A DNA stretch of 64,000 nt, from assembly GCA_963846545.1 (NCBI GenBank), contig CAWJWG010000001.1:2890055-2954054 (forward strand), in the 5' to 3' direction. How positions within the stretch are numbered: the first letter of the stretch is position 1; every line of letters starts with the position of its first letter. The notes under the pieces are model-generated. The model did no database searches. It was not told the DNA's origin and saw nothing but the letters and a program-made list of their open reading frames with translations. The DNA comes from an uncultured Gemmatimonadales bacterium (GTDB lineage: Bacteria > Gemmatimonadota > Gemmatimonadetes > Gemmatimonadales > GWC2-71-9). Positions 934 through 63,222 of this stretch are shown piece after piece. A program made the position numbers and the translations under genes.

Positions 934-1263
934 TCACTCGCGCGTCCGGTTGGGGGACTGGTCGCTCTTCTGGCCGACCACCCGGTCCCACGCGTCCCGC
1001 ACCGCGTCCTTGATCTCGTCCCAGGTCGACGGCTCGGCGCCGCGATGCTCGTAGCGGTCCCAGCCCGCCCGGAGATCGGGCTCGGCGTCCTCAAAGGTCC
1101 GTCCCAGCCCATGCGTGCCCGACTCGAAGCCGTACCGGTAGGCGGGGCGGAAGCGATCGTAATAGTCGGGGCCGAGCGAGTAGGGCCGGCTCGAGAAGTT
1201 CTCGTGCCAGTAGTTCTCCTCGGTCTCCCAGGCGGCACGCCAGTCGTCGGATGGCTGCGTCAT
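934..1263 (-). CDS. Conserved hypothetical small protein, W/Y/R-rich with internal repeats (stress-protein-like)
   Basis: ORF track, 109 aa. Protein-like composition with repeated W..(D/E)..W/Y motifs (WETEENYWHENF, PAYRYGFESG, WDEIKDAVRDAWDRV). It lies directly upstream of the AAA+ gene in the same frame, separated by one stop codon. Confidence 0.6.
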   Translation of the reverse strand: MTQPSDDWRAAWETEENYWHENFSSRPYSLGPDYYDRFRPAYRYGFESGTHGLGRTFEDAEPDLRAGWDRYEHRGAEPSTWDEIKDAVRDAWDRVVGQKSDQSPNRTRE

Positions 1264-1286: not shown

Positions 1287-1377
1287 GAGCTAGGAGCTGT
1301 GAGCTATGAGCTGTGAGCTGTGAGCTATGAGCTACAAGCTACAAGCTCATAGCTCATAGCTCCTAGCTCCTAACTCA
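1287..1377. repeat. Inverted tandem-heptamer array, locus 1: 13 contiguous 7-nt units switching from GAGCTRT to TAGCTCN
   Basis: Units read directly: GAGCTAG GAGCTGT GAGCTAT GAGCTGT GAGCTGT GAGCTAT GAGCTAC AAGCTAC AAGCTCA TAGCTCA TAGCTCC TAGCTCC TAACTCA. Positions 1286-1312 are the reverse complement of 1344-1370 with one mismatch. The last unit contains the stop (1375-1377) of the 1375..1758 gene. Confidence 0.9.
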
Positions 1378-9576: not shown

Positions 9577-9974
9577 TAGTCGCGTCTTCCGAGCACTCTC
9601 GCCACCACGATGCCGAGCAGGAACGCTCCGGCCAGCGCCATCCCCGGCCGGCGCCGGGTCAGGGTCTCGACGTCACGCGCGATCGCCTTGCCGTCGTGGT
9701 CCCTGAGGTAATCGGCCGCGCGGGTGGCCCGCCGCCCGATCGAGTCGGCGGCATCCGCGAGCCGTGGCTGCGCCTCGTCGCGGAGTCGCTCCCCCGCGCG
9801 ATGCAGGGCACCGCCCACCTCGCCGATCCCTTCGGCCGCCTTGCGCTTGCCCTCGCTCAGGACGGGCCCCGCCCGCTCGCGGGCTTCGCGCAGCGTGCTC
9901 TTCGCCTGGTCCACCACTTTATCGCGAGTCTGGCGCACCTGCTCGCCCGCGTCGCTCCCCTTTTCGTCCGCCAT
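9576..9974 (-). CDS. DUF883/ElaB-like tail-anchored small protein
   Basis: C-terminal 132 codons of ORF 9576..10187, from ATG 9972-9974. Charged helical N-terminal part and a C-terminal TM anchor (GMALAGAFLLGIVVARVLGRRD). Confidence 0.6.
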   Translation of the reverse strand: MADEKGSDAGEQVRQTRDKVVDQAKSTLREARERAGPVLSEGKRKAAEGIGEVGGALHRAGERLRDEAQPRLADAADSIGRRATRAADYLRDHDGKAIARDVETLTRRRPGMALAGAFLLGIVVARVLGRRD

Positions 9975-10119: not shown

Positions 10120-10295
10120 CTCCGCTCTAAGATGGCTCCGTCGTACAACCGATCCACGCGAGTCGAGATCCACGGAAGCCGGTGCAACTCCGGCGCGGCC
10201 CCGCCACTGTAACGGGCACCATACCTCGCTCATTCGCCACTGGGAAACCGGGAAGGCGAGCGAGGGCCCGAAGCCAGGAGACGTCTCACTCGTGC
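10120..10295 (+). promoter_or_regulatory. Cobalamin (B12) riboswitch
   Basis: Core GGAAGCCGGTGCAACTCCGGCGCGGCCCCGCCACTGTAACGGG (10174-10216), GCCACTGGGAAACCGGGAAGGCG (10244-10266), and the B12-box-like GAAGCCAGGAGAC (10270-10282). It lies upstream of a TonB-dependent receptor. The boundaries are approximate. Confidence 0.8.
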
Positions 10296-31338: not shown

Positions 31339-32565
31339 TCAGAGGTCGGATGTGGGAGGGTCGATCTGGTTCAGCTCGACGCTGATGATATCGGCATTGC
31401 CGGATTTGATCTGCTCCAGCGCGTCGTTGCTCGGGGTGCCGTCGAGGTGGATCCGCGCCAGTGTGGCCTGCGCGCCATGGTAGATGATGTTCTCCACCTC
31501 TTCCACGTTGATCGACGCGGCGGCGAGGACGGCGAACACGTGGGCGAGGACGCCGGGTCGGTTCCGGTGCCGGATGACGAGCACGTGGGTCGCCGAGCTG
31601 CGGGCGAGGCGGTTGACCACGTTGGGGACCTCGCCTGTGGCCTGGAACGCCTGCACGATGCGGATCACCTCGTGCGCGATCGCCACCTGCGCCTGCTCGG
31701 TGGACGCGCCGATGTGATGGGTGCCGTAGACGCCCGGCGTGTCGAGGATCGGGCTGGTGAACTTGGCGCTGCTCCCCGCCGGCTCGTTCTGGAACACGTC
31801 GAGCCCGACGCGCAGATGCTTCTCGGCCACCGCCTGCCGGAGCGCGATCTCGTCCACCACCGAGCCGCGCGACGTGTTGATGAGATAGGCGCCGGGCCGC
31901 ATCGCGGCCAGGAACTCCGCGTTCACCAGGTGCTTGGTCTCGGCGTTGGCCGCCACGTTGATGGTGACCGCGTCGGCCAGCCGGGCCACCTCGAGCGGAC
32001 TCTGCGCATAGGCGAGGCCGAGGCGCTCCGCCTCCTCGTGGGTGAGCGTCCGCGACCAGGCCAGAACCCGCATGCCGAACGCGCGCGCCCGGGCCGCGAT
32101 CTCCTTGCCGATCTGTCCCAGACCCACGATGCCGAGCGTCCGGCCGTAGAGCCCGCGCGCCTTGGAGTACTCGCCCTTGCTCCACGTGCCCTTGCGGAGG
32201 TCGGCCACCTGATCGGGAATCCGCCGGTCGCACGCCAGCAGCAGGCCGAGCACCAGCTCGGCCACCGCGATCGAGTTCTTGCCGGGACAGTTGGAGATGA
32301 AGATGCCTCGGCTGGATGCGGTCGCTACATCGATGGTGTCGATGCCCGCGCCCGCGCGGATCACCAGCGTCAGCGAGGTGCCGGCGTGGAGCGTCGCCGC
32401 GGTGACCTTGGTGCCGCGCACGATCAGGATGTGCGGGTCGGCATCCTTGATCGCCCCGGGCAACGCCTCGGCGGTGAGATCCGGCTGCGACACGACGGTG
32501 CAGCCCAGCTCCTTCAGACCATCGATGCCGACCTTTTCGAACTTGTCGGCGATTAGCACCTTCAT
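31339..32565 (-). CDS. serA: D-3-phosphoglycerate dehydrogenase with C-terminal ACT domain
   Basis: ORF track, 408 aa. NAD motif GIVGLGQIGKEIA, catalytic ...THHIGAST, and a C-terminal ACT-like regulatory segment. Confidence 0.9.
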   Translation of the reverse strand: MKVLIADKFEKVGIDGLKELGCTVVSQPDLTAEALPGAIKDADPHILIVRGTKVTAATLHAGTSLTLVIRAGAGIDTIDVATASSRGIFISNCPGKNSIAVAELVLGLLLACDRRIPDQVADLRKGTWSKGEYSKARGLYGRTLGIVGLGQIGKEIAARARAFGMRVLAWSRTLTHEEAERLGLAYAQSPLEVARLADAVTINVAANAETKHLVNAEFLAAMRPGAYLINTSRGSVVDEIALRQAVAEKHLRVGLDVFQNEPAGSSAKFTSPILDTPGVYGTHHIGASTEQAQVAIAHEVIRIVQAFQATGEVPNVVNRLARSSATHVLVIRHRNRPGVLAHVFAVLAAASINVEEVENIIYHGAQATLARIHLDGTPSNDALEQIKSGNADIISVELNQIDPPTSDL

Positions 32566-32588
32566 TGGAGCTCCACGAAATGAACGGA

Positions 32589-32688
32589 AAGCTATGAGCT
32601 ATGAGCTATGAGCTAGAAGCTATCGGAGGTGCTTGCCGCGCGTTGGGATCGGTGCCCGACATAGCTCATAGCTCATAGCTTATAGCTC
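32589..32688. repeat. Inverted tandem-heptamer array, locus 2: 5 x (R)AGCTAK, 37-nt GC-rich spacer, 4 x ATAGCTY
   Basis: Left arm AAGCTAT GAGCTAT GAGCTAT GAGCTAG AAGCTAT (32589-32623). Spacer 32624-32660. Right arm ATAGCTC ATAGCTC ATAGCTT ATAGCTC (32661-32688). The DUF1015 stop TGA (32687-32689) lies in the last unit, and the serA start is 23 nt beyond the other end. Confidence 0.9.
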
Positions 32689-33910
32689 ACAACCGGTGCA
32701 CGAACAGCCCGCTGCGCAGCTTGGGCTCGAACCAGGTGCTCTTGGGCGGCATGATGTGGCCCGCGTCGGACACGGCCATGAGCTGGTCCAGCGTGGTGGG
32801 ATAGAGCGAGAAGCCGACCGCCATCTCGCCCGATTCCACCCGCCGCTGAAGCTCGGCCGGTCCCCGAATCCCGCCCACGAAGTCGATACGCTTGTCCGTC
32901 CGAGGGTCACCGATGCCGAGGATCGGCCCGAGCACGCGATCCTGGAGCAACGACACGTCGAGCGACGCGATCGGATCCGAGCGGTCGATGCTCGCCGGGT
33001 CCAGCTCCAGGCGATGCCAGGCGCCGCCGAGGTAGAGCGCAAAGACTCCACTGCGATCCGGCGCTGGATCACGGGTCGGCGTGAGCTTGCCCAGCTTCCC
33101 GATCCGGGCGAGCACCTCGGCCGGTGTCTGACCCTTCAGGTCGCGCACCATGCGATTGTAGGGAAGAATCCGCAGCTCGCTCGACGGAAAGAGCACCGCC
33201 AGGAACCAGTTGTACTCCTCGTCCCCGTGGTGGCTGGGGTTGGCCGCCCGGCGCTCCTTTCCCGCGCGCCAGGCGCTGGCGGAGCGGTGGTGTCCATCGG
33301 CGACGTAGGAGTGCGGCACGGCGCCGAAGGCGCGGACCAGCGCGGCGGGATCGGGCACCGTCCACACGGTGTGGCGCACGCCGTCGGGCGCGGTGAAGTC
33401 GTAGAGCGGTGCCGTCGCCACGATCCGCTCGACCTGCGCGTCGATCGCCGGCTCCGCACGATAGGTGAGAAAGACGGGCTCGGCATTGGCGTTCAGGGTG
33501 AGGACGTGGCGCGTGCGATCGTCTTCCTTGTCCTGCCGGGTCTTCTCGTGCTTCCGGATGAGATCGCGCTCGTAGTCGTCCACGTGCACGCACCCCACCA
33601 CACCGGTCTGGGTCCGGCCGTCCATCACCTGGCGGTAGAGGAACAGCCCGGGCTTCGCGTCCTCGACCAGCGTCCCTGAGGAGAGCAGCTCATCGAGGGC
33701 CGCCCGTGCCCGCGCGTAGATCCGCGGGTCGTACGGGTCCACCTCCGGGGGGAGGTCGATGTCCGACCGGCCCACGTGCAGGAAGCTGTGCGGGTTCCCC
33801 CGGGCCAACTCGGCGGCCTCGGCGCGGTTCACCACGTCGTAGGGCACCGCGGCGACGCGGGCCGCGAGGTCTGGCCGGGGACGGACTGCCCGGAAGGGGT
33901 TCAGGCGCAT
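32687..33910 (-). CDS. DUF1015 domain-containing protein
   Basis: ORF track, 407 aa. MRLNPFRAVRPRPDLAARVAAVPYDVV... and ADGHHRSASA are typical of DUF1015. It commonly neighbours serA/serC. Confidence 0.8.
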   Translation of the reverse strand: MRLNPFRAVRPRPDLAARVAAVPYDVVNRAEAAELARGNPHSFLHVGRSDIDLPPEVDPYDPRIYARARAALDELLSSGTLVEDAKPGLFLYRQVMDGRTQTGVVGCVHVDDYERDLIRKHEKTRQDKEDDRTRHVLTLNANAEPVFLTYRAEPAIDAQVERIVATAPLYDFTAPDGVRHTVWTVPDPAALVRAFGAVPHSYVADGHHRSASAWRAGKERRAANPSHHGDEEYNWFLAVLFPSSELRILPYNRMVRDLKGQTPAEVLARIGKLGKLTPTRDPAPDRSGVFALYLGGAWHRLELDPASIDRSDPIASLDVSLLQDRVLGPILGIGDPRTDKRIDFVGGIRGPAELQRRVESGEMAVGFSLYPTTLDQLMAVSDAGHIMPPKSTWFEPKLRSGLFVHRL

Positions 33911-57764: not shown

Positions 57765-58964
57765 ATGCTGTCGCTCAAGCTGGACCTGCTGCAGACCCTG
57801 AGCCTCGCCGCGCTCCTCTACTTCGTCGGCCTCAAGATCCGGCAGCGGATCGCCTGGCTCGACCGGCTCAACATTCCGGCGGCCGTGGTGGGCGGATTGC
57901 TGTTCGCGCTCCTGGTGCTCCTGGGCCGGGACCGGTTCCTGAGCGTCCAGCTCGATACCTCCGCCCAGACCCTGCTCAGCGTCGCCTTCTTCAGCACGAT
58001 CGGCATGGGCGCGAGTGTCGCCTTACTGCGGGCCGGCGGGCTCCAGGTGGTGATCTTCCTGGTCTTCGCCACCCTCTTCTGCTTCGTGCAGAACTTCCTC
58101 GGCATGGCCATCGCGCGAGGCTTCGGCGAGCACCCCCTGCTGGGAGTCATGGCCGGGTCGGTCACCCTGGTCGGCGGGCCCGCGACCGGGCTCGCCTTCG
58201 CGCCGCTGCTCGAGAGCGCCGGCCTGGTGGGGGCCGGCACGCTCGCCCTGACGGCGGCCACGTTCGGCATCATCTCCGGGGGACTCACCGGTACGCCGAT
58301 CGGCACCTGGCTCATCCGGAGGCACCGGCTGACCCCCACCGGCATCGGGGGCGCCGGCACGGAGGACCTGAAGCCGGTGCCCTTGATCGTGGAGTCCGAC
58401 CGGGAGGACGCTCCACTCATCCTCAACATGATCCTCCTCGCCGTGGCGATGGGCATCGGCAGCATCCTGAGCGCGGGGTTCACGCGCCTGGAGTGGACGC
58501 TGCCGGCGTACATCGGGGCGATGATCGTCGCGTCGCTGCTCCGGAACCTGGACGATGCCACCGGGTGGTTCCGCATCGACCCGGCGGCAATGGATTTCGT
58601 CGGCGGTTTCGCGCTCAACATCTTCCTGGTCGTGGCGCTGATGGATCTGAAGCTCTGGCAGCTGGCTGGACAGGCGCTGCCGCTGTTCGTCATCCTCGCG
58701 GCCCAGGTCACCGTCATCGGGGTGTTCGCCCTCACCGCGTCCTTCCGGCTCATGGGACGTGACTACGACTCGGCCGTGATGGCGAGTGGGTTCGTGGGCT
58801 TCGCGCTCGGCACCACCGCGAACGCGGTCGTGAACATGCGGGCGCTGGTGACGAAATACGGGCCCGCGCCCCGGGCGTTCCTCGTGGTGCCGCTCGTCGG
58901 GGCGTTCTTCATCGACTTCGTGAACGCGATCATAATTACGTTCTTCGTAAACATGATGAGATAG
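57765..58964 (+). CDS. gltS: Sodium/glutamate symporter
   Basis: ORF track, 399 aa. MLSLKLDLLQTLSLAALLYFVGLKIRQRIAWLDRLNIPAAVVGGLLFAL is a typical GltS N-terminus. ~10-12 TM segments. Confidence 0.85.
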   Translation: MLSLKLDLLQTLSLAALLYFVGLKIRQRIAWLDRLNIPAAVVGGLLFALLVLLGRDRFLSVQLDTSAQTLLSVAFFSTIGMGASVALLRAGGLQVVIFLVFATLFCFVQNFLGMAIARGFGEHPLLGVMAGSVTLVGGPATGLAFAPLLESAGLVGAGTLALTAATFGIISGGLTGTPIGTWLIRRHRLTPTGIGGAGTEDLKPVPLIVESDREDAPLILNMILLAVAMGIGSILSAGFTRLEWTLPAYIGAMIVASLLRNLDDATGWFRIDPAAMDFVGGFALNIFLVVALMDLKLWQLAGQALPLFVILAAQVTVIGVFALTASFRLMGRDYDSAVMASGFVGFALGTTANAVVNMRALVTKYGPAPRAFLVVPLVGAFFIDFVNAIIITFFVNMMR

Positions 58965-59120
58965 CTATGAGCTGTGAGCTATGAGCTGTGAGTGAGCTAT
59001 GAGCTATGAGGGGCATGTAGATCGGGGCTCGTCGCTTCGGCCCACGGTTCTTGCTTCTAGCTCATAGCTTCTAGCTCATAGCTTCTAGCTTATAGCTCAT
59101 AGCTCATAGCTCATAGCTCA
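58962..59120. repeat. Inverted tandem-heptamer array, locus 3 (largest): ~7 x GAGCTRT, 47-nt spacer, 9 x TAGCTYA
   Basis: Left arm TAGCTAT GAGCTGT GAGCTAT GAGCTGT GAGT GAGCTAT GAGCTAT GAG (58962-59010). Spacer 59011-59057. Right arm TAGCTCA TAGCTTC TAGCTCA TAGCTTC TAGCTTA TAGCTCA x4 (59058-59120). The gltS stop TAG (58962-58964) is the first triplet of the array. Confidence 0.9.
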
Positions 59121-59147
59121 CAGCGCACAGCCCCCACGGAACTCCAA

Positions 59148-59432
59148 ATGCCCACCATCTGCGCTCACATCCCCACCACCCCTCATAGCGCCCGAGCCGC
59201 GGGCTGTGAAGAATGTCTGGCCAGCGGCGGACGCTGGCTTCATCTCCGCCTCTGCATGAGCTGCGGCCATGTCGGCTGCTGCGACGACTCGCCCAGCCGG
59301 CACGCCTCGGGCCACTTCCACTCGAGCGGGCATCCGGTGATCCAGTCCTTCGAGCCGGGCGAGGATTGGGGCTGGTGTTACGTGGATCAGCGCATGCTCG
59401 GGCCGTTCCCGCCCGCGCCCCGCCCGTCCTGA
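59148..59432 (+). CDS. UBP-type zinc-finger domain protein
   Basis: ORF track, 94 aa. C/H-rich: CEECLASGGRWLHLRLCMSCGHVGCCDDSPSRHASGHFHSSGHP. Confidence 0.8.
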   Translation: MPTICAHIPTTPHSARAAGCEECLASGGRWLHLRLCMSCGHVGCCDDSPSRHASGHFHSSGHPVIQSFEPGEDWGWCYVDQRMLGPFPPAPRPS

Positions 59433-62015: not shown

Positions 62016-62055
62016 GCCGCCAAGCTACGCCCGACCCCGCGCTCGCACGAGCCCC

Positions 62056-62649
62056 CTACCAAGTGGTGACGCCGACCCCATGCTGCGCCAGCGCCGTTTC
62101 ATCCGGCGAGCGCTTCCAGTCCACCGGCCCGACCTCGTACCGGTAGTGCAGCATGGACAGCACGTACTTCCAGGCTCCGGTGAAGTAGCGGTACGTCTCG
62201 TCCCACTCGCCTCCGCGGCCCCAGCCGGTCTGCTCGAACCAGACCCTGGTGCGGTCGGCGCCCAGCCGCTCGAGTCGCACGACGACGCTGGTCCGCTGCC
62301 GCCGGGCCTCGGGAAACTTGGGCGGCGCATCCCAGGTGAACGACAGCATCTCCGGCGCCTGCAGCGCCAGCAGCAGATTCCCCTCGGCGCCCCGCTCGCC
62401 CGGCGCGCCGTCGGGGTTAAAGAGGATCTCGTACGCGCCCAGTGGACGGAGCTCGATGTGGCTGCCGGGGGCGAACCACTCCCGGATGCGATCGCCCTCG
62501 GTCCAGGCGGACCAGACGACGTCGATCGGCGCGGCCACATCCACCCGGTAGCGGAGGGCGCGGCCGGGGCTCTCGTCGAGCGCGGCGGGAGACGGAGTGT
62601 CGACAGACGAGACGGTGGTGGCGAGCAGCAGCAGGATACTGGTCAGCAT
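62056..62649 (-). CDS. SRPBCC/AHSA1-domain protein with signal peptide
   Basis: ORF track, 197 aa. VDVAAPIDVVWSAWTEGDRIREWF... is typical of the Aha1/START-like fold. Confidence 0.75.
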   Translation of the reverse strand: MLTSILLLLATTVSSVDTPSPAALDESPGRALRYRVDVAAPIDVVWSAWTEGDRIREWFAPGSHIELRPLGAYEILFNPDGAPGERGAEGNLLLALQAPEMLSFTWDAPPKFPEARRQRTSVVVRLERLGADRTRVWFEQTGWGRGGEWDETYRYFTGAWKYVLSMLHYRYEVGPVDWKRSPDETALAQHGVGVTTW

Positions 62650-62661
62650 GGCTTCCTCCGG

Positions 62662-63222
62662 TCAGGCATGTGGGATCTCTCCGCCCGCGCGCGCGATCGA
62701 GGCGGCGGTCCCGCCTCGCACCAGCTCCACCAGTCGCATCACGCCGGCCATCGCGTCCATCGCGCGCATCGCATTGGTCCGCCGCCCGGCCCAGACGTTG
62801 AGGATGTAGCCCCAGCCCGCGCCGTACCCCTTCCGGGCCCGCGCGGCGCCCTTCCCCCAGTTCTCCCACTTGCTCGCGGTCAGCTCGAGCCGCGTGCCAC
62901 CTGCCTCCGGGATGAACCGCACCTCCACGTCCTGCGCGCTGGACGCATCGCGCGCGGGATGGAAGGTGAACTTGATCCGCGCGGGCGGATCCCACTCGAG
63001 GACGGTGCCCCACTGAAAGCGCCGGCCGTCCGCGTGCTCCTCGTAGATCCGCCCGCCCACGCGCTGCTCGAACACCAGCCGCGCCACCTGCTTGCCGCCG
63101 ATCGAGTGGGTGCGCCAGGGCCACCACGACGAGAACTCCCCGGCGAAGCGCCGGAAGGCCGCCTCCTGTCCCCACGACACCAGCGCGCTCCGGACGATGG
63201 GCGACAGCACGGTCTCGGTCAT
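62662..63222 (-). CDS. SRPBCC/AHSA1-domain protein
   Basis: ORF 62662..63285 trimmed to ATG 63220-63222 (ATGA overlap with the ArsR stop). This is the classic ArsR-SRPBCC operon arrangement. Confidence 0.75.
   Translation of the reverse strand: MTETVLSPIVRSALVSWGQEAAFRRFAGEFSSWWPWRTHSIGGKQVARLVFEQRVGGRIYEEHADGRRFQWGTVLEWDPPARIKFTFHPARDASSAQDVEVRFIPEAGGTRLELTASKWENWGKGAARARKGYGAGWGYILNVWAGRRTNAMRAMDAMAGVMRLVELVRGGTAASIARAGGEIPHA

Follow-up and report, generated by a model that had tools for sequence, protein, structure and literature searches.

We analyzed a 64,000-nt stretch of the uncultured Gemmatimonadales bacterium GCA_963846545.1 (contig CAWJWG010000001.1, positions 2,890,055 to 2,954,054; hereafter the window, GC 0.698), in which three intergenic loci are built from tandem copies of a 7-nt unit: locus 1 (1287-1377), locus 2 (32589-32689), and locus 3 (58962-59124). 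On direct reading, all three share the layout (GAGCTRT)n - spacer - (AYAGCTC)n, the two arms being reverse complements of each other. Each array sits between two genes on the same strand, as judged from lists of open reading frames (ORFs) and from gene calls on a second assembly. The loci and their flanks comprise the following features.

57765 to 58964, forward strand: gltS, sodium/glutamate symporter (PF03616), upstream of locus 3; its TAG (58962-58964) falls in the first array unit
58962 to 59010, forward strand: 5′ arm of locus 3, the largest copy, with about seven GAGCTRT units (one truncated) and more G than C on the sense strand
59011 to 59057, forward strand: spacer of locus 3, a unique 47-nt sequence (GC 0.64), weakly structured on its own (z = -1.3)
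59058 to 59124, forward strand: 3′ arm of locus 3, longer than the 5′ arm and richer in C than in G on the sense strand; its 9.6 TAGCTCA/TAGCTTC units also show a higher-order period of 14 nt
59125 to 59147, forward strand: 23-nt leader of locus 3 (..CCCCCACGGAACTCCAA ATG), the presumed ribosome-binding region
59148 to 59432, forward strand: gene of a zf-UBP protein (PF02148), downstream of locus 3
32589 to 32689, reverse strand: locus 2, with the sense 5′ arm at 32660-32689 (including the DUF1015 TGA), a 36-nt spacer at 32624-32659, and the 3′ arm at 32589-32623, ending 23 nt ahead of serA, which starts at 32565
31339 to 33910, reverse strand: flanks of locus 2, the DUF1015 gene (32687 to 33910), then serA (31339 to 32565), with serC 3 nt further on
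1287 to 1377, reverse strand: locus 1, nearly spacer-less, with the sense 5′ arm at 1344-1377 and the sense 3′ arm at 1287-1334
1375 to 1758 and 934 to 1263, reverse strand: two small genes flanking locus 1; the TGA of the former lies inside the sense 5′ arm, and the latter starts 23 nt past the array

A preliminary description, made from the sequence alone, had stated that this layout occurs at three loci and nowhere else in the 64 kb; direct reading, Tandem Repeats Finder (TRF), and a motif scan all bear this out. TRF returned period-7 arrays at 1287-1377, at 32590-32623 and 32660-32689, and at 58963-59010 and 59058-59124, with copy numbers of 4.3-9.6 at period 7 and additional higher-order periods of 14 and 21 nt, and it found no further period-7 array in the window. 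The two-unit motif GAGCTRTGAGCTRT, with at most one mismatch, matched 22 times versus 0.05 matches expected from dinucleotide-preserving shuffles, and all 22 matches fall inside the three loci. The arrays are AT-rich, as had been stated, with a GC content of 0.40-0.49 versus 0.698 for the window. The earlier count of about seven units in the 5′ arm of locus 3 is about right, except that one unit is truncated to 4 nt (GAGT).

The stop codon of the upstream gene is part of the first array unit at all three loci (TAGCTAT, TGAGCTA, TGAGTTA), and the arrays end 23, 23, and 27 nt before the next start codons at 1263, 32565, and 59148, respectively; the 27 nt becomes 23 nt when the TRF boundary is used. 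This anchoring had been recognized beforehand and agrees with the ORF lists and the gene calls on the second assembly. The suggestion that the arrays act as six-frame translational stops applies to part of the units: every frame of (GAGCTAT)n meets a stop on both strands, but (GAGCTGT)n lacks stops on its reverse strand, and related lineages carry stop-less units at the same site. The predicted sense-RNA folds of loci 3, 2, and 1 reach -100.8, -58.0, and -67.7 kcal/mol (z = -7.5, -6.0, and -8.8), in line with the hairpin-forming capacity ascribed to the arms, and leave the ribosome-binding site (RBS) region outside the predicted stem.

Length Variation and Assembly Reliability

Second copies of the three loci came from L001/L202, a metagenome contig whose flanking genes are identical, and from two further contigs (L203 and L204). 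With the flanks unchanged, all three loci differ in length between these near-identical assemblies, as expected from the slippage-prone nature that had been proposed for them. Locus 3 is 22 nt longer in the second assembly, with 10 nt added in one arm and 12 nt in the other between identical flanks; the truncated GAGT unit in the left arm reads as a 10-nt deletion relative to L001. The stop-to-start gap at locus 1 measures 111, 119, or 131 nt among the assemblies, with the differences clustering at the tip of the hairpin, and locus 2 differs by 6 nt. Two other contigs that are near-identical to each other (L138 and L139) are exactly one unit apart. Sequencing or assembly error could account for part of the variation at the three loci: not every length difference is divisible by 7, and, to judge by their names, the contigs are long-read assemblies.

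An assembly artifact is unlikely to lie behind the arrays themselves, because they recur in independent assemblies and technologies: long-read-style contigs, metagenome-assembled genomes (MAGs) built with MEGAHIT and SPAdes, isolate genomes, and a Logan short-read contig. The Logan contig (SRR28170471, 1354 nt) terminates within a heptamer array. Heptamer arrays probably fragment short-read assemblies and are under-counted in short-read MAGs.

Persistence and Turnover in a Close Relative

Positions 56.3-64 kb of the window align at ~86% nucleotide identity to L108, a contig of 1.09 Mb from the MAG of an uncultured Gemmatimonadales bacterium. At the gltS/zf-UBP junction of L108, the array is kept and still starts in the gltS TAG. 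Its arms measure 25 and 162 nt (4 versus ~20 units), leaving ~110 nt of surplus unpaired C-rich units. The spacer of locus 3 is unrelated to the L108 spacer at the same site, as it is to the spacer of locus 2.

A second difference between the two genomes illustrates gain or loss. The window contains two tandem AHSA1 (PF08327) paralogues at 62020-62665, whereas L108 has one paralogue together with a spacer-less inverted GAGCTAT array (2601-2722); at the position of this array, the window has the extra AHSA1 gene and merely an AAGCTA seed. The AHSA1 ORF of L108 extends into the array, which supplies its stop codon, and arrays can therefore remodel protein C-termini. The GAGCTRT unit is used at other sites, too, in a relative at the genus level (L072, L108). 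The array is thus positionally persistent at the genus level, hypervariable in size, and open to gain and loss.

The Layout Recurs with Other Units at Orthologous serA Spacers

For comparison with locus 2, we used 80 metagenomic loci whose serA products show 76-87% amino-acid identity, a sample of 625 kb of related sequence. None of the 80 carries an AGCT heptamer in the orthologous DUF1015|serA spacer. Many of them contain other heptamers in the same order: stop codon, (N7)n, spacer, reverse-complement (N7)n, 10-30 nt, and ATG. Examples of such pairs at this junction are GTCGTTG...CAACGAC, CCGCTAT...ATAGCGG, GAGTCGA...TCGACTC, GGTCTAG...CTAGACC, and GCTATGG...CCATAGC, and some lineages have a second inverted heptamer element between serA and serC. 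In the 625 kb, tandem arrays of period 7 (88) outnumber those of any other period, ahead of period 9 (65) and period 12 (57).

On the serA tree, one clade carries arrays with an AGTC core at the DUF1015|serA junction almost throughout. In the clade of the window, unrelated units appear on single branches beside sisters with spacers of 4-35 nt. One unit is common to two sites each in L143 and L138, as the same unit occupies three of three sites in the window. The layout therefore recurs and can persist, and the unit is lineage-specific, which argues against a protein or RNA recognizing GAGCTRT as such. Two features of the unit were considered as general requirements and dropped after hand counts: a palindromic tetramer core is found in ~8 of 29 unit families versus ~36% by chance, and a stop codon is present in roughly half of the units.

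The DUF1015|serA spacer seems to attract repeats of several families. The spacers of L122, L126, and L187 contain a palindrome of the GTCATCCTGAGG...CCTCAGGATGAC type, resembling repetitive extragenic palindromic (REP) sequences; it also occurs in L077 (6041-6137), lies sometimes between heptamer arms, and was not found in the window. In L122, the closest serA relative of the window, an 18-nt tandem repeat (GACCCTGTCGCCCTGAAC)n fills the spacer instead of heptamers (~9830-9920). The closest array-less relatives, L123 (ending ..GAGCTAGCTTAGCTGATGA) and L126 (..CTAGCTGATAGCTCC..), retain one or two copies of an AGCT unit, either at the stop codon or immediately before the RBS, which could be collapsed remnants or seeds of an array.

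Placement and Strand Rules Are Shared Across Units

Genes in the serA-locus sample were called by criteria of third-codon-position GC (GC3) and codon position, and these calls were applied to 46 inverted elements after removal of redundancy. In 42 of the 46, the G-richer arm leads, as it does in 13 of 18 GAGCT-type pairs from other phyla. On the sense strand, arrays adjoining a stop have more G than C in 42 of 48 cases and those adjoining a start more C than G in 31 of 36, a rule that direct-only arrays also obey (8/10 on the stop side, 11/13 on the start side). Start-codon triplets are five times rarer in start-proximal arms, partly as a consequence of these arms being G-poor. Potential for G-quadruplexes does not accompany the rule: at least four GGG runs occur in just 1 of 48 arms of the relatives' arrays, and GAGCTRT has no G-runs.

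In nearly all elements, the 5′ arm begins between -5 and +10 nt relative to the stop codon; for most 3′ arms, 10-31 nt remain up to the start codon. Of 34 co-directional elements, 25 have the longer arm on the start side, the median difference being about one unit (p = 0.009). An array is present in 12.8% of co-directional, 13% of convergent, and 4% of divergent spacers, the last being the longest.

GAGCTRT Is Not a Privileged Heptamer

In a scan with one genome per species, (GAGCTRT)3 was found in at least 120 contigs across many phyla, with several genomes matched repeatedly. Such matches might suggest a family spread across phyla by horizontal transfer. We dropped this idea after a frequency control on viral contigs, where GAGCTRT formed 17 stretches versus 14 and 11 for two composition-matched scrambled heptamers and 12 for GAGTCKA. 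As scrambled heptamers are about as frequent, the cross-phylum matches need no common origin; any heptamer seems to form arrays somewhere. The Acidobacteriota sequence L023 (from CP065003.1; positions 5268-5545 of L023) has a 23-unit direct (GTGAGCT)n array right after GGAG-N7-ATG, creating a six-codon mini-ORF (MVSCEL*), a context unlike that of the Gemmatimonadales copies.

The first 50 kb of plasmid 1 of Gemmatirosa kalamazoonensis, a cultured member of the Gemmatimonadaceae, contain no substantial heptamer array, and the trait is therefore lineage-specific within the family. Literature searches with unit dimer strings matched no paper in a bacterial context and returned no description of such repeats in Gemmatimonadota within the library searched, and a tree-of-life survey of short tandem repeats did not mention heptamers.

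Tests Against Known Element Types

A query of Rfam, which the preliminary description had proposed, matched no family at the arrays at gathering level, the best sub-threshold hit being a plant miRNA precursor (30.8 bits versus a gathering score of 100); at E-value level, only sub-threshold miRNA or snoRNA noise was seen over the arrays. The sole gathering-level Rfam match in the window is a cobalamin riboswitch aptamer (RF00174) at 10172-10284 on the forward strand (74.7 bits, E = 1.5e-16).

A consensus scan detected neither a U-tract terminator nor a sigma-70-like promoter at the array. The arrays are not intrinsic terminators, since no T-run follows the 3′ arm, nor are they CRISPRs, whose direct repeats of 23-55 nt alternate with unique spacers of similar length, whereas the present units are 7 nt long and contiguous; both exclusions had been anticipated.

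Spacers within a genome are generally dissimilar: copies 2 and 3 of the window score z = 0.4, and the pairs in L138, L183, and L190 score 1.7, -0.2, and -1.1, respectively. The exception is L143, where two CCGCTAT elements (1320-1350 and 2652-2683) have a common spacer core, GGAGGCTCGG...CAGGA (z = 5.1), which hints that the whole inverted unit may be copied in some lineages. A miniature inverted-repeat transposable element (MITE) or a REP doublet (REPIN) with a conserved core was rejected on the unrelated spacers outside L143, and a MITE also because inspection of filled and empty serA sites revealed no target-site duplication. No transposase gene was identified for the arrays, and no systematic search for one was made. 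We also rejected the idea that the arrays extend a native hairpin, because the spacers are not generally structured (mean z -0.75; 8 of 41 below -2).

Relation to Described Repeats

Intergenic heptamer repeats have been described in several bacteria. Heptanucleotides are the most abundant long simple-sequence repeats (LSSRs) in many bacterial genomes, for which polymerase slippage was proposed (Mrazek et al., 2007, as summarized in PMC4679880 and PMC4692102). Xanthomonas campestris (Xcc) carries 186 GGGAATC arrays, 89% of them intergenic, and 70 of the 186 form convergent inverted pairs capable of stem-loops (Rehm et al., 2015; PMC4692102). The mean distance of these arrays from the end of the upstream ORF is 28 nt; most are located between genes of the same direction and few in divergent spacers (PMC4692102). 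They are transcribed, and their length and sequence differ widely between Xcc and Xac where the flanking gene pair is the same (PMC4692102). Downstream of an ORF, the G-rich strand of an array is the coding one; upstream of an ORF, it is the non-coding one. This pattern was tied to G-quadruplexes, and no regulatory role was found (PMC4692102). The GGGGA(C/T)T repeats of Nostoc are intergenic heptamers of the Xanthomonas type (PMC4692102). Beggiatoaceae have direct TAACTGA arrays just upstream of start codons, comparable with the heptamers among the cyanobacterial short tandemly repeated repetitive (STRR) sequences (MacGregor, 2015; PMC4679880).

The Gemmatimonadales arrays share with the Xanthomonas and Nostoc repeats the intergenic 7-nt tandem units, the convergent inverted pairs, the stop-proximal placement, the length variability, and the strand rule. 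They differ in that GAGCTRT is AT-rich with a palindromic AGCT core and lacks G-quadruplex potential, in that all three copies of the window are inverted pairs whose first unit supplies the stop codon itself, and in belonging to the phylum Gemmatimonadota. With STRR and TAACTGA repeats they have in common the intergenic location and the scattered phylogeny; those arrays often lie directly upstream of starts in a fixed orientation and are of unproven function (PMC4679880). Unlike ours, they are almost all direct (169 direct sets and one indirect set in the BOGUAY genome), overlap the RBS position, and form no hairpins (PMC4679880). The preliminary designation as an unclassified element family therefore stands as to the family but not as to its being unclassified, as it matches the described heptameric repeats of Xanthomonas and Nostoc (PMC4692102) and the STRR/TAACTGA type (PMC4679880). 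Of the features that define LSSR/STRR repeats, we found at least three tandem units beyond chance, location in spacers, several unlinked sites, length variation, and inverted pairs with a strand rule; only the G-quadruplex-forming unit of the Xanthomonas/Nostoc subfamily is missing.

REP sequences are fixed, imperfect palindromes, 20-40 nt long and tagged by GTAG or CGTC. Together with the bacterial interspersed mosaic elements (BIMEs), they have been proposed to protect mRNA 3′ ends, to attenuate transcription, and to affect translation of the upstream gene, and REPINs are inverted REP doublets mobilized by REP-associated tyrosine transposases (RAYTs). The arrays resemble REP/BIME/REPIN elements as genome-specific palindromes that are abundant between genes, located after stops within operons and between convergent genes, as inverted doublets forming a long hairpin, and in being vertically inherited with turnover. 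They differ by their variable tandem arms, which contain no fixed palindrome with a GTAG or CGTC head, and by their spacers, which are unrelated here but conserved among the copies of a REPIN within a genome. A stable hairpin after a stop, in some cases between convergent genes, also recalls intrinsic terminators; unlike these, however, the arrays have no U-tract, possess AT-rich stems of tens of base pairs instead of short GC-rich ones, and lie inside apparent operons, 10-30 nt from the next start.

Origin and Possible Role of the Arrays

We consider it probable, though well short of certain, that the arrays are genome-specific, hypervariable heptamer microsatellites of the LSSR/STRR kind, generated by slippage, filtered at the level of mRNA, and exerting a modest effect similar to that of a REP hairpin. 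Units would arise and change in number by replication slippage, with each lineage amplifying its own heptamer. The arrays would survive only in short spacers, either from a stop to the next RBS or between convergent stops. That their orientation tracks gene direction suggests that they are transcribed and filtered by selection on mRNA. Orientations placing G-rich, start-codon-rich, or Shine-Dalgarno-like sequence before a start would presumably be purged, as would those exposing C-rich, Rho-loading RNA straight after a stop. A convergent pair would satisfy both constraints and, in addition, fold the insertion out of the transcript as a long hairpin, restoring the ~4-35-nt stop-RBS spacing seen in array-less relatives. 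Such a hairpin would probably behave like a REP/BIME element, i.e., as a barrier to 3′-to-5′ exonucleases, an RNase III target, or a weak attenuator between cistrons. The array is not a classical terminator, and it is not a sequence-specific protein site either.

Several observations weigh against this reading. A perfect palindrome has identical sense and antisense hairpins, so that any difference between the two reports G.U versus A.C mismatches; we found no folding advantage of the sense RNA (mean free-energy difference +1.9 kcal/mol, 16 versus 22, p = 0.16), and hence there is no sign that the hairpin itself is under selection in the mRNA. The unequal arms at the gltS junction of L108 (25 versus 162 nt) indicate a hairpin that is not optimized. 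The depletion from divergent spacers is only a trend (2/49 versus 37/288, p = 0.09), the statistics on polarity and arm asymmetry come from orthologous or related sites that are not phylogenetically independent, and gene direction is inseparable from replication direction in these data. Slippage alone leaves the same unit at unlinked sites of one genome unexplained; a dispersal process or a genome-specific bias is missing from the model. What we say about the function of the arrays is, throughout, inferred.

The arrays might have no function at all, being neutral by-products of heptamer slippage and occasional strand-switch duplication that persist because they are harmless. Their hypervariability, sporadic distribution, and arbitrary unit, no commoner than scrambled controls, fit this explanation, as do very unequal arms and the lack of a sense bias in folding. 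We nevertheless find it doubtful, as the gene-direction polarity and the arm asymmetry need a directional filter or mechanism, and, judging from REP sequences, a hairpin of -58 to -101 kcal/mol in an operon transcript is unlikely to be without effect on RNA decay or translation. Alternatively, the arrays could act at the DNA level, as cruciforms or as phased protein-binding arrays (three units, 21 bp, equal two helical turns) in nucleoid organization, replication, or recombination. Equal complementarity on both strands without a G.U versus A.C bias and the 14- and 21-nt periods are compatible with such a role, which is nonetheless highly improbable: related lineages use different units at the same site, against a conserved binding protein, and a structural role in DNA predicts neither the orientation along genes nor the proximity to stops and starts. 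Hardly credible is the notion of a phase-variable contingency locus, raised in the preliminary description, or of an assembly artifact. The copy number does vary, certain length differences do not correspond to whole units, and one short-read contig breaks off within an array. However, a contingency repeat would sit in an ORF or among the promoter elements of a surface or virulence gene, and the arrays lie outside ORFs and promoters, between the stop and the next RBS of housekeeping genes such as serA and gltS, with no promoter-like site. The same arrays were also recovered from separate samples, by different assemblers, and in isolate genomes.

We also regard as unlikely a dedicated regulatory device maintained by selection (an intercistronic attenuator, a Rho-dependent terminator, or a translational-coupling hairpin). 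In the coupling version, the ribosome at the stop would melt the base of the stem and free the C-rich 3′ arm near the downstream RBS. Precise anchoring, with the stop inside the first unit and 23-27 nt left before the start, would suit such a device, and so would polarity and arm asymmetry that track gene direction, a serA clade that keeps arrays at the same junction throughout, and the ~110 nt of surplus C-rich units in L108, which may resemble a Rho loading site. Set against this are presence and absence among close relatives at a housekeeping operon and the lack of conservation of unit, arm length, and spacer. Moreover, the RBS lies outside the stem, the sense strand has no folding advantage, arrays on both sides of serA in some lineages would be awkward for strong termination, and no regulatory role was found for the analogous Xanthomonas repeats (PMC4692102). 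A non-autonomous mobile element of the REPIN or MITE type, copied by a transposase or RAYT-like enzyme specific to the unit of each genome, would account for the same unit at unlinked sites, for the several genomes that recur among the matches listed, and for the independent colonization of one site by different units. The inverted-doublet hairpin resembles a REPIN in outline (PMC3116915; PMC3337134), and the spacer core shared in L143 points the same way. We judge this origin improbable, given that within-genome spacers are otherwise unrelated, that no target-site duplication is visible at serA sites, and that the arms are variable tandem arrays rather than a fixed, tagged 20-40-nt palindrome; nor has a transposase gene come to light, although none was systematically sought.

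Beyond the slippage-based reading that we prefer, one could envisage that inverted heptamer arrays form a general, unrecognized element class in Gemmatimonadota, Xanthomonas, and other phyla, with placement rules independent of the unit, namely anchoring at the stop, a G-rich arm leading and a C-rich arm preceding the start, and greater length of the start-proximal arm, in which a dedicated transcription- or translation-coupled or enzyme-driven process seeds and homogenizes one heptamer per genome. This idea is speculative, and we think it rather unlikely; if it were true, the G-quadruplex explanation for Xanthomonas would be wrong.

Implications

Reports that heptameric repeats are over-represented between bacterial genes go back to 1990-2007. 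What the present loci add is the cross-lineage evidence that the layout and the strand rules depend on neither the unit sequence nor G-quadruplex potential. The positional and strand rules of the G-rich Xanthomonas and Nostoc heptamers extend to another phylum and to units incapable of forming G-quadruplexes, and one orthologous spacer can host different heptamers in different lineages. The question accordingly shifts from what binds the motif to the process that makes 7-nt arrays and to the single orientation tolerated beside a stop or start. In practical terms, the arrays probably break short-read assemblies, and protein C-termini change where an array provides the stop codon; the arrays could also be used to type strains of soil Gemmatimonadota.

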